A DNA stretch of 64,000 nt from an uncultured Actinomycetes bacterium. Lineage in GTDB: Bacteria > Actinomycetota > UBA4738 > HRBIN12. This document shows positions 43,301 through 61,278 of this stretch, in pieces; within the stretch, counting starts at the first letter, position 1; the number at the start of each line of letters is the position of its first letter. The notes beneath the pieces are model-generated. The model worked only from the letters and a program-made list of their open reading frames with translations, searched no databases and had not been told where the DNA came from. Location of the stretch: NCBI GenBank assembly GCA_963728665.1, contig CAVSLG010000018.1:221096-285095 (forward strand), given 5' to 3'. A program made the position numbers and the translations under genes.

Positions 43301-43866
43301 AGCCGCGAGGCGGTGTTGACGACGTCGCCGGCGACCCGTTCCCCGACCGTTGGACCCTCCCCGAACGTGACCAGCGCCTCGCCCGTGTGCACCGCGATGC
43401 GCACCGGCAGGTTGCCCTCGCGTCACGCGTTCACGGATCGCGAGGGCGGCTCGCACCGCCCGCTCGGGGTCGTCCTCGTGGGCCATCGGGGCGCCGAAGA
43501 CGCCCATCGCGGCGTCGCCGATGAACTTGTCGAGCGTGCCGCCGAACCGCTCGATCTCCTCCTTCGCGACCGCATGGAACGGCACCAGGATGCGGCGCAC
43601 GTCCTCGGGGTCGGCCTGGTCGCTGTGCTCGGTGAATCCGGCGAGGTCGGCGAAGACGATCGTCACGAGCCGCCGCTCCTCGAGGGGAGGGCCGGCCGGG
43701 TGCGGCGGCGCCGAGCGGCGAGCCGCACGACGGGCAGAAGCGAGCCTGCGGCGGCACCTCGGCTCCGCACGACGGGCATCGCAGGCCGAGCGGGGTGCCG
43801 CAGCGAGGCGCAGAAGCGAGCGTCGTCGTCGTTCGACGCCCGGCAGTTCGGACAGGGGATCGCCAC
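40394..43866 (-). pseudogene. Double zinc ribbon + class III adenylate/guanylate cyclase + AAA ATPase + TPR protein; many frameshifts (decay or read errors)
   Basis: CPNC..N...ARFC, ERRLVTIVFADL.GFT, DKFIGDAAMGVFGAP.AHEDDPERAVRAAL, GEPGIGKTRL, EDLHWAD, RAGGNPLY and FSFAHALIRDVAY in shifting frames. Confidence 0.8.
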
Positions 43867-43875
43867 GCGGCGAGT

Positions 43876-44335
43876 CTAGCGGCGAGCTCCTCGACCGCCG
43901 GGACTCAGGCCGGCGAGATGTCGACGTACCCGCCGGCGGTCGCGCGCACCGTGACCGACGAGCCGGTCGACGAGGCCCGGGTCCGGCCGAGACCACGACG
44001 GCACCTCGATGCCGTAGAGCTCGCCGGCCACGATCGACGCCGAGGGCGACGATCGCGTCGGCCTCGCCGAGCACCACCGCGACGGGCGCGGTGCCGGCGC
44101 GGATCGCCTCGGCGAACACGTACGAGCTCGAGCTCGACCCTCGGCCCGACGGCATCACGAGCACCCGCCCGGCGAGCGATCGCGCCCGACCTGCGGATGA
44201 TGGGTGTCGATCAGCTGCCGGTCTCGGGGTCGAGCCCGCCCCAGAAGCTGAGCGGCTCGTCGAGCACGAGCACCTCGCCCGTGGCCACGCCGGGCACGAG
44301 GACCCGCGATGCGGATCCGGGGCAGGCTCAGGCAT
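43876..44335 (-). CDS. Aconitase X swivel (small) subunit, DUF126-like, frameshifted
   Basis: GEVLVLDEPLSFWGG, LIDTHHPQ and GRVLVMPSGRGSSSSSYV. Confidence 0.8.
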
Positions 44336-45607
44336 CGCCCCACGACCGTCCGGTCGCGCACGAGGCGGCCCGCCTCGGCGGAGTCGACGCACTCCTCGAG
44401 CGTGGCGAACGCGACGTCGAAGCCCAGGTTGCCGGGCGCGTACCAGGCCCACTTGCCGGAGTTCGTGACGACCGGGGTGGCGGCGCGCTCGATGATCGGC
44501 GTGATGTAGGTGCAGGTGTCGGTCACGATCGTCACGCCCGCCGCCCGCAGCGCGTCGGCGACGTGCGACGCGTCGTGCGAGCACGTCGCGCCCGGTGTTC
44601 ACGTAGCACGGGCACCGCGAGCCGTCGTCCCTCGACGAGCTCGGCGAGGCGCCGAAGCTCGGCCGCCGAGCAGTGGGGCGTGCCCAGGCTCACGCTCCCG
44701 ACGGCGGCGCCGACCTCCACGGTCGACAGCTCGTCGCGCGCCGCCCGCAGGTCCGCGAGCCCAACGCTCGACGTCGAGCGCGGGCTCCGCCCCGCCGGTC
44801 GCCGCCTCGAGCGTCGGCGCCTCGGGGGTCACGCCGACCGCGTGGAACATCGCGACGGCGCCCGAGGACGCCGCCGCCGCGCCGAGGGCCTTCAGGTGGT
44901 CCTCGGTGGTCGTCGGCGGCAAGCCCGACGATCGCCGGCACGGCGTTGCCCGTTCGGCGACCGACCAGGTGCCCGATCGCGGCGTACGCCGCCTCGTCCT
45001 CGAGGAGCAGCCCGGGGAGCGCGCCGACCCGGAACACGGTCCTCGCGAGCCGTTCCCCGTCGAGGTGCAGGCCGGCCGCCGGAGCGCGGCCCGGTGATCG
45101 CGCAGCAGATGTCGATGAAGTCGCCGTAGCGACCCGTGCGGGCCCCGAGCACCGAGTTCGCGAACACGATCGCGTTCGACTCCGCCCAGGCGACGTGTTC
45201 GCCCGAGGCCGGGGCGCACCGGCAGCTGGTACGGCGCGCAGGTCCAGGTGGGGCGACAGCCCATCGCCACGTACGCGTCCATCAGCGCTCGGGCGTCGGC
45301 CGCCGTGCTCGGGGTCGAGGTGCACGAGCTCGGGGTGCAGCAGGTCGAGCGAGGAGACGTTGAGCGTCGTCGGGATCGCGACCCGGGCGCCGCCGTCGGC
45401 GAGGCGCCTCGCGAAGTCCAGGCCCGCCCGGCCGTGGTACAGGCAGCCGTCGATGTGCGCGGAGGTCACGTCGATGAGCTCGACGGCGTCCATCGCCTCG
45501 GCGGTGCGCGTGAGGATGCGCATCGCGAGCTGCACGGCCGCGCCGCGGTCGCCGTCGAGCGCCGCACGGTCGTCGCCGGAGAGGGAGAGGGAGAGGGAGC
45601 CGGGCAC
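44328..45607 (-). pseudogene. Aconitase X catalytic (large) subunit, DUF521-like; several frameshifts
   Basis: [57 protein letters not shown] and TNSGKWAWYAPG. Confidence 0.8.
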
Positions 45608-46387: not shown

Positions 46388-47020
46388 GTGCCGCTCCGCA
46401 TCGACGTCGTCAGCATCGTCGCCACCCACGACTACCCGGGGGAAGGGCCGACCGAGGTGCAGAACAACGTCTGGGTCGTGGGGGGCGACAGCGAGGTCGT
46501 GGTGATCGACGCCTCGCACGACGCCGGCCCGATCGTCGAAGCGGTCGCCGACCGGCGCGTCATCTCGATCGCCTGCACGCACGGACACTGGGACCATATC
46601 GACGCCGCCTTCGACCTGAGGGATGCCGTCGACGCCCCGATCCTGCTGCACCCCGCCGATGCGCCCGTCTGGCGGCGCACCCACCCTGATCGGGCGCCGG
46701 ACCGCGACCTCGCGGAGGGTGACCTGCTGGTGGCCGACGGCGTCGAGCTGCGGGTGCTGCACACCCCCGGTCACACGCCGGGGAGCGTCAGCTTCCACCA
46801 CACGGCGGGGCACGATCTGTTCGACGGCGACACGCTCTTCCCTGGCGGTCCGGGATCGACGGGGGACGAGCTCGGTGACTTCGAGGTCATCATCGCGACG
46901 ATCCGCGAGCGCATCCTCATCATGCCGCCCGAGACCGCCGTGTACCCGGGGCACGGCGACTCGACCACGGTGGGCGCGGAAGCCCAGCACCTGCATGAGT
47001 GGATCGAGCGCGGCTGGTAG
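46388..47020 (+). CDS. MBL-fold metallo-hydrolase (glyoxalase II-like)
   Basis: THGHWDH, HTPGHTPGS, GDTLF and PGHG; TACGAT 6 nt before the GTG. Confidence 0.9.
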   Translation: MPLRIDVVSIVATHDYPGEGPTEVQNNVWVVGGDSEVVVIDASHDAGPIVEAVADRRVISIACTHGHWDHIDAAFDLRDAVDAPILLHPADAPVWRRTHPDRAPDRDLAEGDLLVADGVELRVLHTPGHTPGSVSFHHTAGHDLFDGDTLFPGGPGSTGDELGDFEVIIATIRERILIMPPETAVYPGHGDSTTVGAEAQHLHEWIERGW

Positions 47021-47031
47021 TCCGGCGTGGA

Positions 47032-48942
47032 CTAGATCAGGGGGCCGGGCATCCCGTCGGGGTCGCCGTCGGCATAGGCCGTGGCGCCGTAGTCGGCGAG
47101 GTCGCGATCGGCGAGTGACTCCAGGAACGTCGTGCCGAAGACCGCCGCGAACTCCTTCTGGTCGAGCAGGTCCTGCTCGACGGCGCTGCGCGGCACGTAG
47201 GCGCCGATGTTCTGCCGGTAACGGTAGGCGGCGAGCGACGCGGCCACGTCTTCGATCGTCGCCCCGCCGTTGTCGCGCAGCCGATCGACGTTCAGGAAGA
47301 CCTCCGAGGGCACGACGCTCTCGACGATGCCCGTCACCCCGGAGAACCGGGACTCGACGTACCGCTCGAGCTGGATCGGGTCGAGCCGCACGCCGCCCAC
47401 CGAGTCGGGCAGCGGGCACTGCCCGTGGTCTGCGGTGATGATCAGCGCGTATTCGCCCGGGAAGGCGTTGTCGAGACGTTCCTTCATGCGCCCGATCTGC
47501 TGGTCGACGGCCCGGAGCTGCAGTCCCGTCCATCGCGACCCCATGCCGTACACGTGGCCGGTGTAGTCCGGTGACTTGTAGGTCGTGTAGAGGAGATCGG
47601 TCGCCTCATGCATCCCGACGCCCTCACAGATCATGCAGGTCGCGAGCACATCGTCCTGGTAGCGCACGATCGGCGGCCGGCAGCACGGCGACTGACGACC
47701 GACGGGCGCGAACTCGGCGTCCCAACCCGGATCGACGAACTCCGCCAGGTATCGCTCGTAGTTGTCCGGATCCGGCATCTGCGAGGGCAGGCGGTAGAGC
47801 TCGGGGTTGTGCGGCTCCCAGCGCTGGGAGCCATCCTCGTCCCAGTACACGCCGACGGGGAGGTCGCCCGGCGGGCGGCCGCGGCCGCCGTAGCCCAGCA
47901 TGCCGAGATGCCACACCTGGTACCCGATCTGGCCGACCCAGGCATCCCTCTCCTCGTGCCACAGGTCGGCGAGCGTGGGGATGTAGATGTCGCTCGGGTC
48001 GGCGGCGCCGGGTTCGCGGTACGCCTTGCGCACGACGCCCTCCGCGTCCCGCAGGTTGTGTCCGGTGATGCCGTGGGCGTTCGGGAAGGAGCCCGTGCCG
48101 ATCGTCGCATGCGCGCACGCCGTCACGGCCGGGAACGACCCGACGATCGCGTTGCGGAAGTTCGCGCTCTCGCCCATGAGTGCCCGGAGGTTCGGCCAGT
48201 CGTCGGGGAAGGCGTCGAGCACGTTCCAGCCGCCGCCGTCGATCACGAACGTCACGACGACGCGAGGGGGCGTCGTGCTCGTGGTCGACAGGGGCAGCTG
48301 CGTGCCGTCGCGGTCGCCGGGCCAGCCGTCGAAGCCGATCAGTTGCGCGGTCGTCGGCGCGAGGTCCGCAAGGGTGACGCGTTGCTCGGAGTCGCTGGGT
48401 GCCACGTGTCCGGGTGCGTGTACGAGGAGCGGGATGCGCTCGAGGTACATCCAGACGCTGGCGTGGCTCGTCCGCGGATCCTGCGGCACGAGCGAGAGCG
48501 ATTCCTGAGGATAGTTCGAGCTGTTGTACGGGGCGAGCAGCAGCTGAAGGTCGCCCGAGCGCCGCGGGACGAACGTGCGCCGCACGAGCTCCATGTACTC
48601 CGAGCCGAGGTCGGTGGCCATCTCCTCCTGGATCGGGCGCGGATCGGGGCGGCCGAGCTTGCGAGCGGCCCACCCGATCGACGGCCCGGCGACCGCCCAC
48701 ACGAGCCCGCCGAGGCCGGCGGCTACAAGCAGGTTGCGGCGCCCCGGGTCCGCTTCCGTGTGTGTCGCACGACCGGGGCCCCAGACGCTGATCGCGAGCC
48801 CCAGCGCCAGCGTGATGAGGCCGATCGAGACACCGAGCACCCACGATCCGGCGATGCCCACGACGAGTCCGAGGAGCCCGGCGAGGACCGCGAACACGGT
48901 CAGGGCACGGATGTCAGGGCGTCGTTCCATGGACACCTCCAT
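47032..48942 (-). CDS. Membrane-anchored alkaline-phosphatase-superfamily enzyme (PafA/NPP-like), apparently circularly permuted
   Basis: VIDG, VTACAH..I.TG..P..HGI.G, SPDYTGH and TADHG motifs, preceded by RSGD..H....RIPL..DLAPT; alternative start ATG48930. Confidence 0.8.
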   Translation of the reverse strand: MEVSMERRPDIRALTVFAVLAGLLGLVVGIAGSWVLGVSIGLITLALGLAISVWGPGRATHTEADPGRRNLLVAAGLGGLVWAVAGPSIGWAARKLGRPDPRPIQEEMATDLGSEYMELVRRTFVPRRSGDLQLLLAPYNSSNYPQESLSLVPQDPRTSHASVWMYLERIPLLVHAPGHVAPSDSEQRVTLADLAPTTAQLIGFDGWPGDRDGTQLPLSTTSTTPPRVVVTFVIDGGGWNVLDAFPDDWPNLRALMGESANFRNAIVGSFPAVTACAHATIGTGSFPNAHGITGHNLRDAEGVVRKAYREPGAADPSDIYIPTLADLWHEERDAWVGQIGYQVWHLGMLGYGGRGRPPGDLPVGVYWDEDGSQRWEPHNPELYRLPSQMPDPDNYERYLAEFVDPGWDAEFAPVGRQSPCCRPPIVRYQDDVLATCMICEGVGMHEATDLLYTTYKSPDYTGHVYGMGSRWTGLQLRAVDQQIGRMKERLDNAFPGEYALIITADHGQCPLPDSVGGVRLDPIQLERYVESRFSGVTGIVESVVPSEVFLNVDRLRDNGGATIEDVAASLAAYRYRQNIGAYVPRSAVEQDLLDQKEFAAVFGTTFLESLADRDLADYGATAYADGDPDGMPGPLI

Positions 48943-49008
48943 GTTCCCAGAGGCGCCCTCGCTGCAGATGGAGGTGCGTGTGGCGTTCCCGTTGCGACGG
49001 AACGCGCG

Positions 49009-50202
49009 CTAGCTGCGCTTGCGGTCCAGGTCGAGGAAGGGCAGCGGCACGACGGTCGCGGCGACCTTGCCGCGCTCGCCCTCGACGCTCCATTCGACGC
49101 TCAGGCGGGTGCCGGGCTTCGCGTGTCCCCTGTCGACCGAGCCGAAGCCGACCATCTTCTTGATCGTCGTGCCCCACGTGACCGAGGTGGCGCGGCCGAC
49201 CTGCTTCCCTTCCTTGTAGACGGGCACCGGGTCGCGGTGCACGAAGGGGCTGATCGCGGGGGCGAGGCCGTGCTTGGCGTACATCGCCTCGATGCCGAGC
49301 CAGTCGAGCTCGACGCCGACGAGCCGACGAACGGGACCACCGGCCGCGTGTTCGGCGCGCAGCGCCCGGCGCCCTGTGAAGTCCGTCGCCTTGCCGAGGT
49401 CGACGAGGGGCTCGAAGCCGAGCTCGTAGGGCGAGTACTGCTGTTCGGGCGCGATCGCGTGACGGGCGCTCGTGTACTCGGCCTCGATCAGGATCAGGCC
49501 GGCTTCCACCCGGGCGACGTCCATCGCGTTGATGCCCACGGGGAAGATGCCGTAACGCTCTCCGGCCTCGAAGATGCGGTCCCAGACGGGCAGCGCCTGG
49601 TCGGCGGCCATCCAGAGCTCGTAGCCCTGGTCGCCGGTGTAGCCGGTGCGGGTGACGTCGACGGCGACGCCGGCGATCTCGGTCATCCGGCGTCCGAAGT
49701 ACTTCAGATCGGTCCAGTCGGCGCCGGTGGCGTCCTGTAGCACCTCGCGGCTGAGGCGGCCCTGCAGGGCGAGCGCGGCCGTGCGGTCGCTGATGTCGTC
49801 GACGTCGACATCGAGCCCGGTGGCGTTCAGCACGAACCAGCGGTAACTGGGGTCGGCGGCCGTGATGCGGTAGGTGGTGTCGTCGAGGCGGGCGATCGTG
49901 CCGTCGTCGAGGACCTTGCCCTCCTCGTCGCACCAGGGCGAGTAGAAGACGCGGTCGACCCGCAGCTTCGTCATGTCGCGGGTCATCACCCGGTCGAGCA
50001 GTCGCTGGGCGTCGGGGCCCTTGACCTCGTACTTGTAGAGGGGGCTGATGTCGATGACCGCGGCGGCCTCGCGGATCGCGCTGTACTCGATGTCGTGGAA
50101 GTCGGCGTACACGGGCACCGAGAAGTACCCGGACCACTCGCCCCAGGCCATCTTCGAGTTCAGCGCTTCCTGGCGCGGGAAGAACGCGGTGGGCACGCTC
50201 AC
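49009..50202 (-). CDS. GcvT-like aminomethyltransferase / folate-binding protein
   Basis: EY.AIRE.AAVIDISPL.KY.V.GPDA, DEEGKVLDDG, TRTGYTGDQGYELW and G..AMD.ARVEAG. Confidence 0.88.
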   Translation of the reverse strand: MSVPTAFFPRQEALNSKMAWGEWSGYFSVPVYADFHDIEYSAIREAAAVIDISPLYKYEVKGPDAQRLLDRVMTRDMTKLRVDRVFYSPWCDEEGKVLDDGTIARLDDTTYRITAADPSYRWFVLNATGLDVDVDDISDRTAALALQGRLSREVLQDATGADWTDLKYFGRRMTEIAGVAVDVTRTGYTGDQGYELWMAADQALPVWDRIFEAGERYGIFPVGINAMDVARVEAGLILIEAEYTSARHAIAPEQQYSPYELGFEPLVDLGKATDFTGRRALRAEHAAGGPVRRLVGVELDWLGIEAMYAKHGLAPAISPFVHRDPVPVYKEGKQVGRATSVTWGTTIKKMVGFGSVDRGHAKPGTRLSVEWSVEGERGKVAATVVPLPFLDLDRKRS

Positions 50203-50295
50203 GGGTGGACCTCCTCGGTCGGTCGTGGGGCGCGCGAGGGACGCCCGACAGCGCGTAGGGTATCCGACCGCCGCCGGGCCGCGGCACGGACCGGA

Positions 50296-50310
50296 CTGAC
50301 CTGAGGTCAG
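50296..50310. promoter_or_regulatory. Palindromic operator candidate in the divergent intergenic region
   Basis: CTGACC-TGA-GGTCAG, a perfect inverted repeat. Confidence 0.45.
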
Positions 50311-50415
50311 GTGGCCGTTGGTGGGCGTTGTGACCCCCGGCTAGCATGGGCGACCGGCGACCCAGGCCGTGTTCCGGGACGCCCTGTTGACCTCGAGTCA
50401 CCCAGGAGGCACCCC

Positions 50416-52017
50416 ATGGCGAAGCGGTACGACGCGGTCGTGATCGGAGGCGGGCACAACGGTCTCGTGAACGCTGCGTACCTCGCCAAGGCGGGGCTGA
50501 AGGTGCTCGTGCTCGAGCGTCGGCACATCCTGGGCGGGGCGACCCTCACCGAGGAGATCGTGCCCGGGTTCAAGTTCTCGGTCTTCAGCTACGTCGTGTC
50601 GCTGCTGCGGCCCGAGATCATCCGCGACCTGCAGCTTCCGAAGCACGGGCTCGAGATCCTGCCGCTCGACGGCACGATCACCCCCCTCGAGGACGACTAC
50701 CTCTGGCGCGTGAACGACCACGGCAAGAACGTGCGTGAGCTGCGTCGCTGGAGCCTGAACGACGCCGAGGTCTACGAGGAGTACGGCCAGCTGATGGCCG
50801 AGATGGGCCGGTTCATCAAGCCGATCCTGTCGATCGCGCCGCCCGACACGGGGAAGATCACGCCGGGCCACTGGCTGCCGCTCGGCCCCCTCGCGAAGGC
50901 GTTCAAGGACCTTCCGAAGAAGATGCAGTCCACGTTCATCCAGCTGATGACGATGAGCGCCGCCGACTTCCTCGACCAGTGGTTCGAGACCGAGCCGCTG
51001 AAAGCCACGATGAGCGCCTCGGGCATCATCGGCACGTTCCAGGGGCCGCGGTCGCCCGGCACGGCCTATGTGCTGCTGCACCATTACATGGGCGAGATCG
51101 ACGGCGCGTTCCGTGCGTGGGGCGTGCCGAGGGGCGGCACCGGTTCGGTGGCATACGCGATCGCGAACAGCGCGCTCTCGCTCGGCGTCGAGATCCGCAC
51201 CGAGGCGGGCGTCTCGCACATCAAGACCGCGAACGGGCGCACCACCGGGGTCGTGCTCGGGTCGGGCGAGGAGATCGAGGCCGACGTCGTGATGAGCTCG
51301 CTCGACTCCCGCCAGACGTTCATCAACCTGCTCGACGAGCACGACCTCGAGCCGTCGTTCCGCGACGAGGTGATGCGCTACAAGTACCGCGGCTCGAGCG
51401 GGAAGGTGAACCTCGCGCTCAGCGGGCTGCCCGAGCTCGCATGCAAGCCGGGCGTCGGTCCGTGGCTGCGCGGCGCGATCTCGTTCTCGCCGTCGCTCGA
51501 CTACATGGAGCGCGCCTACGACGACGCGAAGTACGGGCGGCCGTCGGAGCGCCCATACATCGATTGCATCATGCCCACGCTCGTCGACCCGACGATGGCG
51601 CCTCCGGGCAAGCACGTGATGAGCTGCTTCGTGCAGTACGCGCCCTACCATCTCGAGAATGGCGAACAGTGGGACGACGAGAAGCGCGAGGCGTTCGGCC
51701 AGAACGTGATCGACACGCTCGAGGAGCGCTTCCCGAACATCCGGTCGCTGATCGAGGGCTCACAGTTCGTGACGCCGAAGGACATCGAGGACATCACGGG
51801 TCTCAGCGAAGGCAACATCTTCGCGGGCGAGCTCTCGCTCGAGCAGCTGTTCTTCAACCGCCCGGTGCCAGGCTGGGCGCGCTACGAGACGCCCGTGAAG
51901 GACCTGTGGATGTGTGGGTCTGCGACGCACCCGGGCGGCGGCATCATGGGTGCGCCCGGCATGATCGCGGCGCGCGAGTACCTGAAGCAGCGCAAGCGGG
52001 GAAGGAGGGCGGCGTAG
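50416..52017 (+). CDS. CrtI/phytoene-dehydrogenase-like (PYROXD2-type) FAD oxidoreductase 1
   Basis: VIGGGHNGLV.AAYLAKAG, GGATLTEE..PGFKFS and CGSATHPGGGIMGAPG; AGGAGG SD. Confidence 0.88.
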   Translation: MAKRYDAVVIGGGHNGLVNAAYLAKAGLKVLVLERRHILGGATLTEEIVPGFKFSVFSYVVSLLRPEIIRDLQLPKHGLEILPLDGTITPLEDDYLWRVNDHGKNVRELRRWSLNDAEVYEEYGQLMAEMGRFIKPILSIAPPDTGKITPGHWLPLGPLAKAFKDLPKKMQSTFIQLMTMSAADFLDQWFETEPLKATMSASGIIGTFQGPRSPGTAYVLLHHYMGEIDGAFRAWGVPRGGTGSVAYAIANSALSLGVEIRTEAGVSHIKTANGRTTGVVLGSGEEIEADVVMSSLDSRQTFINLLDEHDLEPSFRDEVMRYKYRGSSGKVNLALSGLPELACKPGVGPWLRGAISFSPSLDYMERAYDDAKYGRPSERPYIDCIMPTLVDPTMAPPGKHVMSCFVQYAPYHLENGEQWDDEKREAFGQNVIDTLEERFPNIRSLIEGSQFVTPKDIEDITGLSEGNIFAGELSLEQLFFNRPVPGWARYETPVKDLWMCGSATHPGGGIMGAPGMIAAREYLKQRKRGRRAA

Positions 52018-53598
52018 ATGGCTTCCCCCACCGACGTCGTCGTGATCGGCGGAGGCCACAACGGCCTCGTCGCTGCCGCGTACCTCGCGAAGGCGGGCCG
52101 CAAGGTCACGCTGCTCGAGGGGGCGCCCGAGGTCGGTGGCATCCTGCGGACCACCTCTCCCGCCGAGGGTGTCACCGCCCCCGGCATCGCTCACACCGTG
52201 GGACGCCTGCGCGCCTCGGTCGTGAAGGACCTGCAGCTGTCGTCGTTCGGCTTCGAGGCGATCGCGCCCGCCGTGCGCATGTTCGCCCCGCAGCCCGACG
52301 GCTCGGCCGTCACGTTCTGGGGCGATCCCGCTCGCACCGCGAACGAGTTGCGTGATCGCAACGCCCACGACGCCGACGCGTTCGGCGGCTTCGACGCCAA
52401 GATGCGCTCGATCGCGAGCTTCCTCGCCTACATCAACGTCGCGACCCCGCCCGATGCGAGGTCGCCCTCGATCGCCGACGCGATGATGGGCCTGAAGCTC
52501 GGGAAGGCCTTCCGTGACTTGGGAGGCAAGGCCGGGCGCGAGGCGATCCGCGCGCTGCCGATGGCGGTCGCCGACCTCGTGCAGGAGGTCTTCGACGACG
52601 AGGCGGTGCGAGGGCCGTTGACCACCCGTGGCGTGCTCTTCACATCGATGGGTCCCTGGGCGACGGGTACCGCGGCGGTGTTCCTGAACGACTCGGCCGG
52701 AACCGACGGCGGCGCGGCGGGCACCACGGTGTTCGCGCGCGGCGGCACGGGAGCGCTCGCGGAGGCGCTCGAGGGCGCCGCCAAGGCCCGAGGGGTCGAC
52801 GTGCGCACCGGCGCCGAGGTCGTCGCGATCCGATCGACCGACGGGAAGGTGCGCGGCGTCACCCTCGCCGATGGCACCGAACTCGACGCCACGTTGGTCG
52901 TGTCGGCCGCCGACCCGAAGCGCACCCTTCGTCTCTGCGACCCAGTGGAGCTGAACCCGTACGAGGTCTGGCGGGCCGAGAACATCCGCCAGCCGGGCAC
53001 GACCGCCAAGGTCAACCTCGTGCTCTCGGGCCTGCCGGCCTTCAACGGTGCCGACGACGTCGAACGGCTGAAGGGTCGCATCGTCGTCGGAACGTCGATC
53101 GATCACGTCGAGCAGGCGATGGACGCGAACAAGTACGGGCACGTCGCAGAGGACCCGATGCTCGAGGCCACGATCCCCACGCTCGTCGATCCGTCGCTGG
53201 CTCCTGAGGGCAAGCACGTGATGTCGATCCTGTTCCAGGCTGCGCCTCGCAGATTGCGCGACGGTGACTGGGCGGGTGAGCGCGACCGGGTCGCCGACAT
53301 CGCCGTGAAGTCGATGGAACGGTTCGCGCCGGGCCTGGGTGAGCTCGTCGAGGCACGCGAGGTGATCACGCCCGAGGACATGGAGACCGACTACGGCCTC
53401 ACCGGTGGCCACGTGTACCACGCAGAGCCCGGCCTCGATCAGTTCTTCGCGTGGCGCCCCATGAACGGCGAAGCTCGCTACCGACTCCAGATCGATGGTC
53501 TCTACCTGGCCGGCTCGGGCGCGCATCCCGGCGGCGGCATCACGGGCGGTCCAGGCGCGAACGCGGCACGACAGATCCTCGTTGAGACGAAGCAGTAG
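52018..53598 (+). CDS. CrtI/phytoene-dehydrogenase-like FAD oxidoreductase 2
   Basis: IGGGHNGLVAAAYLAKAG and LAGSGAHPGGGITGGPG; ATG directly follows the upstream TAG. Confidence 0.88.
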   Translation: MASPTDVVVIGGGHNGLVAAAYLAKAGRKVTLLEGAPEVGGILRTTSPAEGVTAPGIAHTVGRLRASVVKDLQLSSFGFEAIAPAVRMFAPQPDGSAVTFWGDPARTANELRDRNAHDADAFGGFDAKMRSIASFLAYINVATPPDARSPSIADAMMGLKLGKAFRDLGGKAGREAIRALPMAVADLVQEVFDDEAVRGPLTTRGVLFTSMGPWATGTAAVFLNDSAGTDGGAAGTTVFARGGTGALAEALEGAAKARGVDVRTGAEVVAIRSTDGKVRGVTLADGTELDATLVVSAADPKRTLRLCDPVELNPYEVWRAENIRQPGTTAKVNLVLSGLPAFNGADDVERLKGRIVVGTSIDHVEQAMDANKYGHVAEDPMLEATIPTLVDPSLAPEGKHVMSILFQAAPRRLRDGDWAGERDRVADIAVKSMERFAPGLGELVEAREVITPEDMETDYGLTGGHVYHAEPGLDQFFAWRPMNGEARYRLQIDGLYLAGSGAHPGGGITGGPGANAARQILVETKQ

Positions 53599-53805
53599 CA
53601 GCCCAGGCAGCTGCCTCGATCCACCGGATCACCACACGCCGAGGAACCGTCAGGGATCCGCGCCACTCCCATGGGCCGTGGCTACGTGATCCGGGTGGTG
53701 CGTGCGACCGACCGTCCTTTCACCTACGGATTTTGGCGCTTTCGCTGAACTGCATCGTTCGACTAGCGTGACCCCCCCCACAGACCTCGTTTGGGAGGGC
53801 AAGGC

Positions 53806-54618
53806 GTGTCTCGGACGCTGGATCGGTCGGTATCACCCCGCCATCGCGCGCCCTCCAGACGTCGTCGGTTCTTCGCGCGTGGGAATGGCGCCGTCGTCTT
53901 CGAGAGGGGTCGCCGATACTCCTGGGGTCGGCGAGGCGACACGTTCTACATCTGGGACAGGAGACACCCCAGTGATGCGCTCGGGCATCCCTGGGAGGCC
54001 AACGCACGGCGGGAGTTCCAGTGGCTGGAGCAGGAGGCTGCACACCGTTGGCGCCGCCGGTGGCGACGGCTGTTCATCGCGGTCGGGCTCATCGTCATCG
54101 TTCTGGTGGCCGCCGCGATCGCCCTGAAGGCGAAGGATGGATCGTCGTCCAGCATCTCGCACGCCGAACCGGCCCTGGGTCACGAGGTCGGGCGCTACGT
54201 CAACGCCGGGGGCGGGTACGGGTTCAACGCGCCTTCGGATTGGGGCGTGGTGAGTGCGTCGTCGACCGCCCGGGTGACGAGTCCAGGTGGCACGGTCACG
54301 ATCTCGATCCAGGTCGCGCCTGATGGAGCCGTCGGGGCCGCCTCGGAGGCGTTCGTCAGGGACCTGACCGCTGCATGGACCGGTGCGCAGCCCGAAGCAC
54401 CACAGCCTCGAATGGTGGGTGATCTGCCCGGCCTGTCGGTGGGCGGCACCGCGATCGACGAGACCGGCGTCCCGATCAGGTTCCTCTCGATAGTGGTCGA
54501 CTCGGGCGCGCGCAACCACGCGATCTCGGTCTCAGTGCCACGGGAGTGGGATGCCGCGCTGTTCATGCCCGCGGTCGACGTCGTGGTGTCATCGTTCGAG
54601 TCACTCGACGCGCCCTGA
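53806..54618 (+). CDS. Hypothetical single-TM protein with a PsbP/DcrB-like extracellular domain
   Basis: GGAGGG SD; Arg/Trp-rich N-terminus, TM helix, then GYGFNAPSDW. Confidence 0.55.
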   Translation: MSRTLDRSVSPRHRAPSRRRRFFARGNGAVVFERGRRYSWGRRGDTFYIWDRRHPSDALGHPWEANARREFQWLEQEAAHRWRRRWRRLFIAVGLIVIVLVAAAIALKAKDGSSSSISHAEPALGHEVGRYVNAGGGYGFNAPSDWGVVSASSTARVTSPGGTVTISIQVAPDGAVGAASEAFVRDLTAAWTGAQPEAPQPRMVGDLPGLSVGGTAIDETGVPIRFLSIVVDSGARNHAISVSVPREWDAALFMPAVDVVVSSFESLDAP

Positions 54619-54738
54619 GTCTCACGGTCAGGAAGATCGAAAGGTCGACGGGACGGGACGCCGCCGCCGGGGCGCGCGAGAGCCTCGTCGGCCGGTCGAT
54701 GGACGGTAGCGGATGTCGCCACTAGGGTCGAGCGAACG

Positions 54739-55833
54739 ATGATCTCGCTCGAGCACGTCGAGAAGCGTTACCCCGGAACGTCCTCCCCGGCCGTCGGCGA
54801 CCTTACGCTTGAGATCGACGAGGGCGAGACCGTCGCGCTCGTCGGGCCGTCGGGCTGCGGCAAGACCACGACGCTCAAGATGATCAACCGGCTGATCGAG
54901 CCGACGGGCGGACGCATCGTGCTCGACGGCACGAACGTGCTCGACCAGGACCCGGTGCAGCTGCGCCGGGGCATCGGCTACGTGATCCAGCACACCGGTC
55001 TGTTACCACACCGCACCATCCGCCAGAACATCACGACGGTGCCGCACCTCGTCGGCTGGGACGACGGTCGAATCGCCGGCCGCGTCGACGAGCTGCTCGA
55101 GATCTTCGACCTCGACCGGGAGCTCCTCGACCGATACCCGGGGGAGCTCTCCGGCGGCCAGCGCCAGCGGGTCGGCGTCGCCAGAGCGCTCGCCGCCGAC
55201 CCGCCGGTGATGCTGATGGACGAACCGTTCGCGGCGGTCGATCCGATCGTGCGGGGACGGCTGCAGGATCAGTTCCTCGAGATCCAGGAGCGGCTCCGCA
55301 AGACGATCGTGTTCGTGACCCACGACGTCGACGAGGCGATCAAGCTCAGCGACCGGATGGCGATCCTGAACATCGGCGCGGTCCTCGAGCAGTTCGACCC
55401 GCCCGAGACCGTGCTGCGTGAGCCCGCGAACGACTTCGTGCGCGAGTTCGTCGGGGCTGAGCGTGGCCTGAAGCGGCTCGCCCTGATCAAGGTCGACGAC
55501 ATCGAGGTGGAGCCCGGCCCCGTGGTGGCTCCGAGCGCCGGCGCCGACGAGGCCCGGCGCGCGATCGATGCCGCCGGCTTCGGGTGGGTCAGCGTGGTCG
55601 ACGACGGGGAGTTGCTCGGGTGGGTCGACCACCAGGCGCTGGAAGGGTGTGCCACGGCGGGCGAGGCCATTCCGAGAAGGTTCAGCGCGTACGTGACCGG
55701 ACGCGACTCCCTGCGCCAGGCCCTCGATTCGATCGTCACGTCGCGGACGGCGGTCGCCGTCGTGGTGACCGAAGGCCAGCACTACCGGGGCCTCTTGACG
55801 CTGGAGCGCATCTCGAAGGAGATCCTCGCGTGA
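54739..55833 (+). CDS. Osmoprotectant ABC transporter ATPase (OpuCA/ProV-like) with CBS domains
   Basis: GPSGCGKTT, LRRGIGYVIQ, LSGGQRQRVGVARAL and MDEPF.AVDP. Confidence 0.92.
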   Translation: MISLEHVEKRYPGTSSPAVGDLTLEIDEGETVALVGPSGCGKTTTLKMINRLIEPTGGRIVLDGTNVLDQDPVQLRRGIGYVIQHTGLLPHRTIRQNITTVPHLVGWDDGRIAGRVDELLEIFDLDRELLDRYPGELSGGQRQRVGVARALAADPPVMLMDEPFAAVDPIVRGRLQDQFLEIQERLRKTIVFVTHDVDEAIKLSDRMAILNIGAVLEQFDPPETVLREPANDFVREFVGAERGLKRLALIKVDDIEVEPGPVVAPSAGADEARRAIDAAGFGWVSVVDDGELLGWVDHQALEGCATAGEAIPRRFSAYVTGRDSLRQALDSIVTSRTAVAVVVTEGQHYRGLLTLERISKEILA

Positions 55834-56543
55834 GCGACCTCGTCGTCGGCGCCACGACGTTCCTCGCCCAGCAGGACACCGAGCCGCTGATCCGCTGGAT
55901 CTGGATCTCCGACCACGTCGACGAGATCGCGAGCCGGGGGCTGCAGCACGTCTACCTGACGATCGTGACCGTGGTGATCGGGTTCCTGATCGCGTTCCCG
56001 GCGGCCGTCTACGCCTCGAGACACCGGTGGGCGGTCTCGCCGATCACGTCGATCTCCGGGGTGCTGTACACGATCCCGGCGTTCGCGTTCATCTTCCTGC
56101 TGCTGCCGATCACCGGCCTGTCGCTCACGACCGTGGTGATCCCGCTGATCGCGTACAGCCTGCTGATCCTGTTCCGCAACACGCTCGCGGGTCTCGACTC
56201 GGTGGAGCCCGAGGTGAAAGAAGCCGCCGTCGGCATGGGGCTGTCACGCCGGCAACTGCTGTGGCGCGTGGAGGTGCCGCTCGCGATGCCGGTGATCATC
56301 GCGGGCCTGCGCATCGCGACGGTGAGCTCGATCGCACTGATCACGATCGCGGCGCTGATCGGCAGGGGCGGGTTCGGCCAGTTCATCCTCGACGGCCTCA
56401 ACACGTTCTTCTGGACCCCGTTGATCGTCGGCGTCGTGTTGTCGGTCGCACTGGCGTTCGCCGCCGATCTGCTGCTGCTCGGTCTGCAGCGCCTCGCGAC
56501 ACCCTGGGCGAGGACCTCGGGCGTCAGGGCGGTCGCCACGTGA
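55830..56543 (+). CDS. Osmoprotectant ABC permease 1
   Basis: YTIPAFA; EAA loop (KEAAVGMG); GRGGFGQFI. Confidence 0.9.
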   Translation: MSDLVVGATTFLAQQDTEPLIRWIWISDHVDEIASRGLQHVYLTIVTVVIGFLIAFPAAVYASRHRWAVSPITSISGVLYTIPAFAFIFLLLPITGLSLTTVVIPLIAYSLLILFRNTLAGLDSVEPEVKEAAVGMGLSRRQLLWRVEVPLAMPVIIAGLRIATVSSIALITIAALIGRGGFGQFILDGLNTFFWTPLIVGVVLSVALAFAADLLLLGLQRLATPWARTSGVRAVAT

Positions 56544-57253
56544 ACGGCCTGTTCGAGGGGCTGTTGTGGCTCGTGGATGCCGCGAACTGGTCGGGGGTGG
56601 ACGGCATCCCGGCTCGGGTCTGGGAACACGTGCAACTCTCGCTGATCTCCCTCGTGATCGCAACGCTGATCGCGGTGCCCATCGGCCTATGGATCGGTCA
56701 CACGCGTCGGGGTCAGTTCTGGACCGTGCAGCTCGCGAACCTCGGACGGTCGGTGCCTTCGCTCGCGGTACTGTCGATCGCGTTCCTGCTCGTGCTGAAG
56801 CTCGCGCCCAAGGACCATCAGGAGCTCGCGTTCGGGTTCCTGCCGACGATCGTGGCGCTCACCCTGTTGGGCATCCCGGTGATCCTGATCAACACGTATG
56901 TGGGCATCCAGCAGGTGGACCCCGACACCGTCGAGGCGGCGCGTGGCATGGGCATGAACGGCCGGCAGGTGCTCTGGAAGCTCGAGGTGCCGATGGCGAT
57001 GCCGTTGATCATGACCGGCCTGAGGCTCGCCGCCGTGCAGATCGTCGCCACCGCCGGCCTCGCCGCCCTGATCGCCGGCGGAGGGCTCGGCCGGTACATC
57101 GTCGACGGGTTCGCGTTGCGTGAGAACGACAGGATCGTGGCGGGCGCGATCCTCGTGGCGGTGCTCTCGTTGCTCACCGATCTCGGGTTCTCGCTGCTGG
57201 CCAAGGCCACCTCGCCGAAGCTCAGCTCCGAACCAGGGAAGGTTCCCGCGTAA
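56540..57253 (+). CDS. Osmoprotectant ABC permease 2
   Basis: RSVPSLA; EAARGMGM; GGGLGRYI. Confidence 0.9.
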   Translation: MNGLFEGLLWLVDAANWSGVDGIPARVWEHVQLSLISLVIATLIAVPIGLWIGHTRRGQFWTVQLANLGRSVPSLAVLSIAFLLVLKLAPKDHQELAFGFLPTIVALTLLGIPVILINTYVGIQQVDPDTVEAARGMGMNGRQVLWKLEVPMAMPLIMTGLRLAAVQIVATAGLAALIAGGGLGRYIVDGFALRENDRIVAGAILVAVLSLLTDLGFSLLAKATSPKLSSEPGKVPA

Positions 57254-57375
57254 CGTTCGGTTCCTTGCCGTGACCGCACCGCATCGTTTGACAAGAACGA
57301 ACGCGCCGTTGATACGGTGCTCGATGTCCACCGTCGGGGAGATGGACACCCCATGACCGGATGGAGGGGTAACCC

Positions 57376-58317
57376 ATGCGGAAGCACCGCATGTTCGTCC
57401 TCGGGGCGGGCCTCCTCGCGTTGTCGTTGTTCGCGGCCGCGTGCGGGGACTCGGGTGGGGACGACACGGGCGGCGGCGCCACCGACACGGCGAGCGCCGA
57501 GCCCAAGGGCGAGATCGTCGTCGGGGTGTCCGGCGCGTTCGCCGAGAACCAGGTCGTCGCCGAGATGTACGCACAGGTGCTGGAAGCCGACGGCTACACC
57601 GTGACGCGAGAGCTCGACATCGCCGACAGGGCGGTGGGTAACGAGGCGCTCGCCGCGGGCGAGATCGACCTGAAGCCCGAGTACACGGGGTTCGACCTGC
57701 CGCTGTACGACGAGAAGGCCGCCACGAACGGGGAACCGCAGGCTGTCGCCGACGCGCTCACCGCAGCGCTGGAGCCCGAGGGGCTCGTGACGTACGCGAT
57801 CTCGCCGGCCAACAGCACGAACGTGTTCGTGGTGACGCCCGAGACCGCCGAGGCCAACTCGCTGACCGACATGAGCAGCCTCGCATCGGTTGCCGGTGAT
57901 CTCACCCTCGGTGGTCCCGCGGACTGCCCGAAGGCCGCGTTCTGCGTGCCAGGGCTCGAGGAGACGTACGGGGTGACGTTCGCCGAGTTCAAGCCACTGG
58001 ACTTCGGCGGACCGAAGACGGTCGCGGCGATCGACAGCGGCGCGGTCGACGTGGGCGTGCTGTTCTCGCTCGACCCCACGATCCAGGACAAGGGGTACGT
58101 GGTCCTCACCGACAACGAGAACCTTCAGGCCAACGGGAACTTCATCCCGGTCGTGCGCGAGGAGATCGCGAGTGACGAGCTCGGGGGGCTCCTCGACAGC
58201 GTTACGACGTCGCTGACCGACGAGAACATGCGCGAGATGGTGGGGCAGATCCAGAACGACAAGCGCGACGTATCCGACGTCGCGTCGGAGTACCTGACCA
58301 ACGCGGGCATCCTCTAG
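57376..58317 (+). CDS. Osmoprotectant ABC substrate-binding lipoprotein (OsmF/OpuCC-like)
   Basis: Lipobox FAAAC; F.ENQVVAEMYAQVLE, PEYTG and GLEETYG. Confidence 0.9.
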   Translation: MRKHRMFVLGAGLLALSLFAAACGDSGGDDTGGGATDTASAEPKGEIVVGVSGAFAENQVVAEMYAQVLEADGYTVTRELDIADRAVGNEALAAGEIDLKPEYTGFDLPLYDEKAATNGEPQAVADALTAALEPEGLVTYAISPANSTNVFVVTPETAEANSLTDMSSLASVAGDLTLGGPADCPKAAFCVPGLEETYGVTFAEFKPLDFGGPKTVAAIDSGAVDVGVLFSLDPTIQDKGYVVLTDNENLQANGNFIPVVREEIASDELGGLLDSVTTSLTDENMREMVGQIQNDKRDVSDVASEYLTNAGIL

Positions 58318-59860: not shown

Positions 59861-59947
59861 AGCGCGGAGCCTAGCCGTCGGAGGTTCCCGTGGGTGTGAC
59901 GAGTCGATGGCGGTCCGTGCCGAATCGTGTGTGGGAAGCTTCGCGGC

Positions 59948-60988
59948 ATGAGCGAGCCACCCGACTTCCGGCTGGAGCACAGCGAGCTTCGCGGCGACGA
60001 CGAGTTCACTGAGTTCACGAGCACCGACCTGCCGTACTACTCGGATTGGCGGGGCTCGTTCGAGAAGTTGCCGTGGGCCACCGACGACGACTCCCTGCGC
60101 TCGGCGAACGCCGACGTCGCGATCGTGGGCGCGCCGCTCGACGAGGGCACGTCGTCGCGTCCCGGCGCCCGGTTCGGACCGCGCGCGATCCGCATGGCGC
60201 CGACGGCTTGGAGCAGTGACTACGCCTGGTCGATCCAGCTCGACGTCGAGCCGTACGAGCACCTCACGGTGGTCGACGCGGGCGACGCCCCGATCGTGCC
60301 CACCCGGTTCGAACGCGCCCTGCGGGTGATCCACGAGAAGGTCTTCCGCGTCGCGCGCGCCGGTCCGGTGCCGATCGTGCTCGGTGGGGATCACTCGATC
60401 ACCTATCCGAGCGCGGCGGCCGTCGCGCGCGCCGTGTGGCCGCGCAAGGTCGGCGTCGTGCACTTCGACGCGCACGCCGATACCGGGGCCGACCAGTGGG
60501 GCAACCTCTACGGCCACGGCGAGCCGATGCGCCGCCTGATCGAGGAGGGCTGGGTCGCCGGTCCCAACTTCGTGCAGGTGGGCCTGCGCGGCTACTGGCC
60601 GGAGCAGGACACCTGGGCCTGGATGCGCGAACAGGGCCTGCGCTGGCACACGATGGCCGAGATCGAGGAACGGGGCAGTGAGGCCGTCGTCGCAGACGCG
60701 ATCGCCGAGGCCCTCGAGGGACCGGACTGCATCTACCTGAGCGTCGACATCGATGTGGTCGACCCGGGCATGGCGCCCGCCACCGGCACGCCCGAGTCCG
60801 GCGGCATGCTCGCCCGCGAGCTGCTGCGCGCGGTGCGGCAGGTCGTCGGTCAGGTCGACCTGGTCGGCATGGACGTGGTCGAGGTCTCGCCGCCTTACGA
60901 TCACGCCGAGGTCACCGCGATCCTGGCCCATCGCACGGTGATGGAGGCGATCAGCGCACTCGCGAAGAGGCGGGCGAGCACCGAGTAG
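59948..60988 (+). CDS. speB: Agmatinase / ureohydrolase
   Basis: GARFGPRAIR, LGGDHSIT, HFDAHADT and SVDIDVVDP..AP.TGTPE; exact substrate not established. Confidence 0.85.
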   Translation: MSEPPDFRLEHSELRGDDEFTEFTSTDLPYYSDWRGSFEKLPWATDDDSLRSANADVAIVGAPLDEGTSSRPGARFGPRAIRMAPTAWSSDYAWSIQLDVEPYEHLTVVDAGDAPIVPTRFERALRVIHEKVFRVARAGPVPIVLGGDHSITYPSAAAVARAVWPRKVGVVHFDAHADTGADQWGNLYGHGEPMRRLIEEGWVAGPNFVQVGLRGYWPEQDTWAWMREQGLRWHTMAEIEERGSEAVVADAIAEALEGPDCIYLSVDIDVVDPGMAPATGTPESGGMLARELLRAVRQVVGQVDLVGMDVVEVSPPYDHAEVTAILAHRTVMEAISALAKRRASTE

Positions 60989-61235: not shown

Positions 61236-61278
61236 GGCGACTCCTCCTGTCTCGCGCCTCGCCACTACGATGGTCGCC

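Follow-up and report, generated by a model that had tools for sequence, protein, structure and literature searches.

The window analyzed here, a stretch of 64,000 nucleotides from an uncultured Actinomycetes bacterium (contig CAVSLG010000018.1 of assembly GCA_963728665.1), encodes a triad of genes that on balance probably constitutes one enzyme system, namely a split, tetrahydrofolate (THF)-coupled oxidative N-demethylase. The triad comprises a GcvT-like gene of the aminomethyltransferase family (49009-50202, minus strand, 397 aa), whose product is the proposed THF-binding acceptor of the one-carbon (C1) unit; flavoA (50416-52017, plus strand, 533 aa), an FAD oxidoreductase of the PYROXD2/COG1233 family and the proposed catalytic subunit; and flavoB (52018-53598, plus strand, 526 aa), a diverged flavoA paralogue proposed to act as a partner subunit or second-step enzyme. 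To the best of our knowledge, all known cases of folate-coupled oxidative N-demethylation rely on DAO-family flavoproteins (DMGDH, SARDH, DMGO, Sox and Mgd), and the literature we searched holds no description of a PYROXD2/COG1233 flavoprotein pair with a stand-alone GcvT-like partner. The triad points to a non-homologous flavoprotein family performing folate-coupled N-demethylation, split over three proteins.

In the proposed mechanism, flavoA would use its FAD to oxidize an N-methyl amine, secondary or tertiary, by dehydrogenating its C-N bond, which would give an iminium ion. The C1 unit, at the oxidation level of formaldehyde, would not be released but handed to the stand-alone GcvT-like protein, which would condense it with THF to form 5,10-methylene-THF, and the demethylated amine would proceed into catabolism. 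FlavoB is most likely the heteromer partner of flavoA, as the CtmA and CtmB subunits of limonene dehydrogenase are thought to pair, and may serve as a structural, electron-transfer or altered-specificity subunit. The chemistry, the use of THF, the physical complex, the electron acceptor (O2, a quinone or another carrier) and the substrate are points that we infer from sequence. A split demethylase of this kind had been put forward in the initial annotation of the locus; it now draws support from conserved gene linkage, genome-wide co-occurrence, the exclusion of a carotenoid role and several lines of evidence pointing to C1 transfer.

The window lies in a metagenome-assembled genome of 3.35 Mb that is 75% complete, and its G+C content is approximately 70%. 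The GcvT-like gene and the flavoprotein operon diverge from a shared intergenic region of 213 bp (50203-50415); the median spacer between GcvT-like gene and flavoA among relatives is 392 bp. The flavoA open reading frame (ORF) opens with a GTG at 50311, and the real start is the ATG at 50416; an AGGAGG stands 6 nt before it, and a protein of the same length, 533 aa, is called on a contig of 97.7% identity. At the flavoA-flavoB junction, ...GCGTAGATGGCT..., the TAG stop abuts the ATG start, and GGAAGGAGG lies just upstream of the flavoB ATG, within the 3' end of flavoA. The layout originally described, two FAD oxidoreductase paralogues coupled TAG-ATG and a GcvT-like gene on a shared divergent region, is present at these coordinates, with only the flavoA start corrected. 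The reported lack of other glycine-cleavage genes nearby also holds: the sole gcvH of the genome lies on a different contig (C14:63355-63711; the window is on C18). No sigma-70 promoter consensus, terminator or Rfam RNA or riboswitch was found in 46500-55000.

A scan of species-representative genomes recovered at least 597 relatives, and the best 80 loci, with flavoA identities of 67-98%, were analyzed; they come from Actinomycetota (including Gaiellaceae), Chloroflexota (Limnocylindria), Acidobacteriota and Verrucomicrobiota. A second paralogue follows flavoA directly in 80/80 of these loci. Flanking sequence was sufficient upstream of flavoA in 76 loci, and 71 of these carry a GcvT-like orthologue there within 10 kb, divergent in 70 and co-directional in one. 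Reciprocal searches of the same 401 Actinomycetota genomes found flavoA orthologues in 28, GcvT-like orthologues in 31 and neither gene in 370. All 28 flavoA genomes carry both genes on the same contig, a few kb apart and usually adjacent (Fisher's exact p = 4.7e-40), and the three additional GcvT-like matches lie on short contigs, two of them abutting a contig end. The three-gene arrangement far exceeds chance. Nearly all of the triad-positive Actinomycetota genomes belong to the family and order of the window itself, and the triad recurs in other phyla at 67-70% identity; this makes for a patchy distribution, and the three genes appear to be transferred together.

The gene order is not fixed. 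Operons in the order flavoA'-flavoB'-GcvT-like are found on plasmids of three cultured Alphaproteobacteria, Rhizobium sp. SL42, Shinella zoogloeoides ATCC 19623 and Parasedimentitalea marina W43, and all three genes overlap in the Rhizobium and Shinella operons. The Shinella genes have the locus tags K8M09_RS20840/20835/20830. The persistence of linkage through rearranged gene order is strong evidence of shared function. The three-gene linkage on which the initial annotation had staked its proposal is very strongly conserved across Actinomycetota, Chloroflexota, Acidobacteriota, Verrucomicrobiota and Alphaproteobacteria, and the phyletic co-occurrence is near-perfect. With the operon present in these three culturable organisms, its function is directly testable.

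A further small ORF follows the GcvT-like gene in two of the plasmid operons, encoding a hypothetical protein of 81-83 aa (L106:13391-13642 in Rhizobium sp. SL42; L107:13389-13634 in Shinella zoogloeoides). It overlaps the GcvT-like gene by 1 nt in Shinella, matches no family and has no counterpart seen in the window. By analogy with SoxD and SoxG of sarcosine oxidase, it could be a fourth, small subunit.

Sequence comparisons place flavoA in the PYROXD2-like subfamily of COG1233 flavoproteins. It aligns over its full length with animal PYROXD2 (Tyto alba; 40% identity over 548 residues, E = 4e-139) and shares 41% identity with a Caenorhabditis briggsae protein. The identity between flavoA and flavoB is lower, 37% across 534 residues (E = 1e-91), which leaves flavoA nearer to PYROXD2 than to its own operon partner. 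Motifs common to flavoA and PYROXD2 include GGGHNGL, SY..SLLRP, VLLHH, GNIF and HPGGG. In the phylogenetic tree, PYROXD2 forms a sister clade within the same family, outside the flavoA orthologous group. Both window flavoproteins match PF01266 at the dinucleotide-binding N-terminus only (profile positions from about 1-40 to 1-50); their family is PF01593/COG1233. Membership in the DMGDH/SARDH/DMGO/MABO class was rejected, since neither protein has a full PF01266 domain with FAO_M and the genes are separate from GCV_T.

The GcvT-like protein contains both domains of the GcvT-fold folate-binding superfamily, GCV_T (PF01571, 201 bits, 2.5e-59) and GCV_T_C (PF08669, 51 bits, 1.2e-13). It retains the DDG motif with the catalytic aspartate (VLDDGT) and the RTGYTG(D/E)xGYE motif (RTGYTGDQGYE), both of which align with the solved T-proteins 1yx2 and 1woo and with the folate domain of the trimethylamine N-oxide (TMAO) demethylase Tdm (9q59). 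These two domains and the aspartate and GYTGE-type motifs assign the protein by sequence to that superfamily. The Tdm structure is among its top solved-structure matches (E = 1.8e-41), and it also aligns with the folate domains of DMGO and DMGDH (E = 1e-26 to 7e-24).

The protein falls under every NCBIfam equivalog cut-off. Its best NCBIfam match is Tdm (NF053776, 251.5 bits against a cut-off of 1100), restricted to profile positions 388-760, the C-terminal half; the identity of Tdm was rejected on that score and because the DUF1989 half is missing. Glycine cleavage T-protein proper was likewise rejected, on sub-cut-off scores (PRK00389, 193.9 against 300; TIGR00528, 143.9 against 235.85) and the lack of genomic association with gcvH or gcvP, and DmdA was rejected at 150.7 bits against a cut-off of 410 (NF009133). 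Sub-threshold scores were also obtained for DesA (89.6 bits) and LigM (71.6 bits). The window proteins lie far under the sox cut-offs (148 against 1164).

Natural fusions were sought with a concatenated query among proteins of at least 800 aa. P0139 (957 aa), found in a Logan assembly of run DRR453249, joins GcvT domain, linker and flavoprotein cleanly in one frame: residues 1-403 match the window GcvT-like protein over its whole length at 39% identity, and a linker of approximately 25 residues leads into a flavoA-like domain of 46% identity. P0199 has the same architecture and clusters with P0139 beside the flavoA clade. Two other candidates were set aside, namely P0140, whose middle section is frameshifted, and P0189 (917 aa, from a relative's contig, L104), whose reversed domain order may be an indel artefact, the syntenic genes on contig C16 of the window's own genome being separate. 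The flavoA-flavoB fusions P0124-P0127 and P0131 were also rejected as mostly frameshift-like, with the A halves of four ending mid-domain in BLAST comparisons against A and B. In P0124 the HPGGG motif of A is joined straight to the GxGxxG motif of B, and it is not counted as evidence.

A second kind of fusion is more robust. An N-terminal GFA domain (PF04828, glutathione-dependent formaldehyde-activating) is present in at least 12 PYROXD2-like proteins of eukaryotic type, from protists and other sources: P0147, P0160, P0161, P0163, P0164, P0166, P0167, P0172, P0173, P0175, P0177 and P0180, some of them from MMETSP and EukProt transcripts. The three of these used for the tree group together with good support beside animal PYROXD2. 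Two different acceptors of formaldehyde-level C1 units, GcvT and GFA, are therefore fused or adjacent to flavoproteins of this family in different lineages, as expected if the flavoprotein generates the C1 unit.

Paralogues within the same genome lead in the same direction. The genome contains 14 GcvT-domain genes, and of the seven PYROXD2-like loci four have such a gene within 10 kb, where chance would give approximately 8% per locus (binomial p = 1.4e-3). One PYROXD2-like paralogue (C17:24219-25895) sits inside an island at C17:13659-30380 that begins with a DMGDH-like DAO+FAO_M+GCV_T protein, a corrinoid protein, a RACo reactivase and an MttB-family methyltransferase and continues with an MTHFR-like protein, the PYROXD2-like gene, a 75-aa ORF, soxA, a 140-aa ORF and a soxB-like DAO gene. 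The run following the PYROXD2-like gene can be read as soxDAGB-like, with putative assignments of soxD and soxG, and by its gene content the island appears to be a complete-looking set for the demethylation of glycine betaine to glycine. The GcvT fusions, the GFA fusions, the paralogues in this betaine/sarcosine island and the metabolites associated with human PYROXD2, described below, are independent lines that point to a formaldehyde-level C1 unit leaving the flavoprotein.

Two further paralogous loci were observed. At C16:23307-26096, a PYROXD2-like gene and a GcvT-like gene are adjacent and co-directional, the flavoprotein being frameshifted at approximately 25475; the neighbors encode a major facilitator superfamily transporter, a serA-like phosphoglycerate dehydrogenase and a class V aminotransferase. 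At C17:61609-68858, a 574-aa arginase-family protein is followed by a PYROXD2-like paralogue and then by a protein resembling ADP-forming acetyl-CoA synthetase (CoA_binding + ATP-grasp_5). The database proteins P0203 and P0205 are fusions of the same two domain types as at this locus.

We next consider how flavoA and flavoB relate. A maximum-likelihood tree recovers an A clade (100/98) and a B clade (100/99), each monophyletic and with the same internal topology, which indicates an old duplication whose two products have since been passed on as a pair. Across 59 loci, the three proteins of the triad are correlated in their pairwise identities, with r = 0.87-0.89. By sequence, flavoA and flavoB appear to be a COG1233 pair in the sense of two adjacent, co-transcribed paralogues, as their abutting reading frames, invariable adjacency and mirrored clades indicate. 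Their rates of change differ: among 81 orthologues, 239 columns of flavoA are at least 97% conserved, against 75 in flavoB, and flavoB evolves 2-3 times faster. FlavoB retains both FAD motifs. At five likely active-site positions (A numbering) it departs from residues that do not vary in flavoA, in PYROXD2 or in the other paralogues: S58 is replaced by A, Y59 by H, H223 by D, W235 by T and N467 by H. These replacements are conserved within the B clade. The patterns are best read as a conserved, catalytic flavoA subunit with flavoB as its diverged partner; the heteromer itself we infer from the comparison of the two sequences.

An alternative that we consider unlikely is that flavoA and flavoB are independent enzymes that form no heteromer, carrying out successive demethylations, such as from dimethyl to monomethyl and on to the primary amine, or acting upon two related substrates and sharing the GcvT-like protein as acceptor. 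The FAD-binding motifs are complete in both paralogues, the conserved replacements in flavoB (H at A467, D at A223) suggest a distinct, selected function and not decay, and no reliable A-B fusion was found. PYROXD2-like genes also occur partnerless, by the GcvT-like gene on C16, in the P0139 fusion and beside the sox genes on C17. Obligate partners nevertheless fit better with the strict adjacency in 80/80 loci, the TAG-ATG junction, the overlapping genes of Rhizobium and Shinella and the mirrored phylogeny, as well as with the faster evolution of flavoB and its loss of residues that all other branches of the family keep unchanged.

A decidedly improbable alternative is that the GcvT-like protein is itself the demethylase, namely a redox-independent THF methyltransferase of the DmdA or LigM/DesA type, with the flavoproteins oxidizing its product or catalyzing another step. 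Stand-alone GcvT-family demethylases do exist, the window protein gives the sub-threshold scores against DmdA, DesA and LigM listed above, and conserved linkage shows a common pathway, not a common reaction. Its scores against T-protein (194 bits) and Tdm (251 bits) exceed those against DmdA and LigM, however, and the catalytic aspartate motif of T-protein is retained. Moreover, GcvT domains fused to flavoproteins, as in DMGDH and SoxA, act as methylene acceptors, and the GFA and GcvT fusions point to the flavoprotein as the source of the C1 unit.

The fold of the flavoproteins and their distant similarity to carotenoid enzymes required separate attention. Against the crtI family model (TIGR02734, cut-off 238.1 bits) flavoA and flavoB score 118.2 and 132.9 bits, respectively, and against the CrtO ketolase model (NF045689, cut-off 1000) 274 and 234.3 bits. 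Phytoene/squalene synthase (PF00494) was not found in the whole 75%-complete genome by a search that was positive in 8 of 14 control genomes, and no carotenoid or isoprenoid genes occur in the 80 related neighborhoods. Despite the lack of a detected phytoene/squalene synthase, the genome holds eight paralogues of the flavoprotein family. The initial annotation had reported no carotenoid genes nearby, an observation that extends genome-wide, and had named carotenoid desaturase activity as a finding that would refute its proposal; such a function is excluded as far as sequence allows.

An AlphaFold2 (AF2) model of flavoA (predicted local distance difference test score, pLDDT, 87; predicted template modeling score, pTM, 0.89) has as its nearest solved folds CrtD and CrtI, followed by NicA2, monoamine oxidases and putrescine oxidase, at 15-18% identity. 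Its template modeling (TM) score against 4rep is 0.76-0.82, with only 16-18% identity to CrtI and CrtD, and the fold search returned no solved structure from a close relative. A role of the flavoproteins in lipid or terpenoid metabolism, as CrtI-, CrtO- or CtmAB-like C-C desaturases or methyl hydroxylases with a functionally unrelated GcvT-like gene beside them, is highly improbable: the top NCBIfam matches (CrtO, the crtI family) and structural matches (CrtD, CrtI) and the action of CtmAB, the only characterized COG1233 pair, on a hydrocarbon would favor it, but every score is far under its family cut-off, the synthase and isoprenoid genes were found in neither the genome nor the 80 neighborhoods, and coincidence cannot account for the fusions or for how often the GcvT-like gene accompanies flavoA (p about 5e-40).

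Several points weigh against the split demethylase. All evidence on the triad is comparative. The fold predicted for flavoA is common to C-C desaturases and C-N amine oxidases, and the modeled structure leaves the chemistry undecided. The stand-alone GcvT-family enzymes DmdA and LigM demethylate without a flavoprotein, and no electron acceptor gene (electron-transfer flavoprotein or cytochrome) is linked to the triad. GcvT-flavoprotein fusions are rare: an exhaustive HMMER search for relatives of P0139 yielded split proteins only, and the other fusion matches come from error-prone long-read contigs. An AF2 model of the P0139 fusion reached a pTM of 0.62 and left residues 316-421, part of the GcvT domain, unmodeled. 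Since the apparent A-B fusions mostly resemble frameshift artefacts, they provide no solid Rosetta stone for contact between the two flavoproteins. Finally, the accessory genes differ between phyla, so that no single substrate is indicated.

The split demethylase would resemble known systems in logic more than in parts. DMGDH/DMGO, sarcosine dehydrogenase and 4-methylaminobutyrate oxidase follow the same proposed scheme, in which an N-methyl group is oxidized with FAD and the C1 unit is placed onto THF through a GcvT fold. Those enzymes combine PF01266 DAO and FAO_M domains in fused proteins, whereas the triad has PF01593/COG1233/PYROXD2-like flavoproteins, three polypeptides and two flavoprotein paralogues; classical DAO+FAO_M+GCV_T proteins also occur in the same genome. 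SoxBDAG and N-methylglutamate dehydrogenase likewise place the flavoprotein and the GcvT-fold module on separate polypeptides encoded side by side. In SoxBDAG, however, SoxB is a DAO-family protein and the GcvT fold lies within the large SoxA, and the triad has no equivalents of SoxD and SoxG. In Tdm, a C-terminal GcvT-fold domain akin to the GcvT-like protein captures formaldehyde on THF. Tdm is a single polypeptide and not a flavoenzyme, and its N-terminal DUF1989 catalytic domain is the half missing from the window protein. If the proposed activity is true, the A/B/GcvT triad would be a third, non-homologous route to THF-coupled N-demethylation beside the DMGDH-type and Sox-type systems.

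For the flavoprotein pair, the closest precedent is CtmAB, the limonene dehydrogenase of Castellaniella defragrans, which consists of two adjacent COG1233 FAD oxidoreductases of 27% mutual identity (PMC4109377). Both CtmA and CtmB are genetically required, and they oxidize a methyl group with O2 not serving as oxygen donor (PMC4109377). CtmAB resembles flavoA and flavoB as an adjacent COG1233 pair of low identity (27% against 37%), a likeness drawn from its description. Unlike the proposed activity of the triad, it acts on the allylic C-methyl group of a terpene, and its partners are a ferredoxin and a reductase with no GcvT-like protein. CrtI, CrtD and CrtO have a fold in common with flavoA, at the low identities and missed cut-offs given above.

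PYROXD2 itself forms a separate clade and is a single gene with no known GcvT partner; its protist relatives carry the GFA domain. A missense variant of human PYROXD2 is associated with N-methylpipecolate (p = 9e-26), in a study that cites prior links of PYROXD2 to urinary trimethylamine and dimethylamine (PMC5780481). PYROXD2 single-nucleotide polymorphisms are associated with N2-acetyl-N6,N6-dimethyllysine (p = 3e-85; PMC13352909), and papers from 2022-2026, including the latter, still describe the function of PYROXD2 as little known. Biallelic loss of PYROXD2 is reported to cause a severe infantile mitochondrial disorder. Variants of PYROXD2 are among the strongest metabolite quantitative trait loci (for N-methylpipecolate, dimethyl-lysine derivatives, trimethylamine and dimethylamine), and they concern a mitochondrial enzyme without a known reaction.

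These human associations concern the family and not the operon, and they run in the same direction as a demethylase function. Tentatively, and with somewhat more doubt than hope of generality, we suggest that PYROXD2-family flavoproteins from bacteria to humans may be a hitherto unrecognized class of demethylating dehydrogenases of N-methyl amines with a dedicated C1 captor, GcvT-like in bacteria and GFA in protists. If this is true, the demethylase still missing for N-methylpipecolate, N6-methylated lysines and related amines would, in humans, be PYROXD2. The demethylase proposal supplies a testable function for an uncharacterized enzyme family. It also bears on the turnover of methylated nitrogen in soil, since the triad is widespread in abundant and poorly cultured soil lineages, namely Thermoleophilia-like Actinomycetota, Limnocylindria, Acidobacteriota and Verrucomicrobiota.

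The genes surrounding the triad offer partial clues to its substrate. In Actinomycetota, an AlkP-family gene follows the GcvT-like gene, a ureohydrolase gene and a pyridoxal phosphate (PLP)-dependent decarboxylase gene follow flavoB, and AcnX genes lie nearby. The agmatinase-family ureohydrolase of the window (59927-60988, plus strand; TIGR01230, 181.5 bits, above the cut-off of 174.3) is a recurrent Actinomycetota neighbor that in six relatives (L022-L027) lies approximately 0.1-4 kb downstream of flavoB, and arginase-family genes are also found near other PYROXD2-like genes. The group II PLP-dependent decarboxylase (61270-62673, plus strand) is diaminobutyrate-decarboxylase-like by NCBIfam and Pfam matches, and its protein cluster adjoins triads in Actinomycetota and Chloroflexota loci. 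The large and swivel subunit genes of aconitase-X (AcnX; 43915-45607, minus strand; clusters c19 and c24) recur near the triad in five Actinomycetota loci (L019-L021, L024 and L028). Hydroxyproline dehydratase and mevalonate-phosphate dehydratase are known enzymes of the AcnX family.

Downstream of flavoB, the window also encodes a ProV/OpuA-type ABC transporter (54739-58317, plus strand) with an ATPase, two permeases and an OpuAC lipoprotein. The score against the proV model TIGR01186 is 320.7 bits (cut-off 326.6), and there is also a weak match to OsmF. This osmoprotectant transporter had been taken as a pointer to the substrate; the transporter is indeed present, but only the three nearest relatives (L019-L021) have it beside the triad, and it is a weak clue.

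Other phyla surround the triad with different genes. In Chloroflexota these are an M20 peptidase gene after the GcvT-like gene, an aminotransferase, a FecCD-type ABC transporter and housekeeping genes, and a PLP-dependent decarboxylase gene sometimes lies between the genes. The alphaproteobacterial clusters contain GbcA-like Rieske oxygenases, a 680-aa flavoenzyme of the old yellow enzyme (OYE)/FadH type, a PotD-like binding protein, a TetR regulator and a class III omega-aminotransferase that scores above its cut-off. By their predicted functions, the recurrent neighbors fit small nitrogen compounds, namely N-methylated omega-amines, amino acids and guanidino compounds, none of which is singled out, and the context suggests that the substrate is either a small amine bearing N-methyl groups or an intermediate derived from a betaine. 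By general flavoenzyme chemistry, quaternary amines lack a nitrogen lone pair and would consequently not be direct substrates of a flavin amine dehydrogenase, a limit that fits the alphaproteobacterial gene set: the Rieske oxygenases and the OYE/FadH-type flavoenzyme are candidates for earlier demethylation steps, and the omega-aminotransferase would remove the resulting primary amine.

Three remaining neighbors in the window complete the locus. Directly downstream of the GcvT-like gene lies a gene for a membrane-anchored protein of the AlkP/phosphodiesterase family (47032-48942, minus strand; Pfam Phosphodiest, weak NCBIfam PafA match) with N-terminal hydrophobic segments, linked to the triad in 13 Actinomycetota loci only. 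Its frame is 636 aa in the window and is called as 433 + 101 aa on the 97.7%-identical European Nucleotide Archive contig; given this difference between assemblies, with 59 gap openings over 20 kb, one of the two probably contains indel errors. The slot between flavoB and the ABC transporter is variable, differing in spacing and length in the closest relatives, and in the window it holds a 270-aa protein (53806-54618, plus strand) with an arginine-rich N-terminus, one predicted transmembrane segment and no Pfam or NCBIfam match. A 1085-aa protein with a guanylate/adenylate cyclase domain and AAA_16 (41345-44602, minus strand; cluster c23), a large ATPase-type regulator, is kept in the closest relatives. 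Outside the window, in Rhizobium sp. SL42, rhizopine-catabolism-like genes lie approximately 3-8 kb upstream of the triad operon (L106:1236-5748), encoding a MocD-like desaturase-family protein, a MocE-family ferredoxin, an FAD oxidoreductase and an inositol 2-dehydrogenase.

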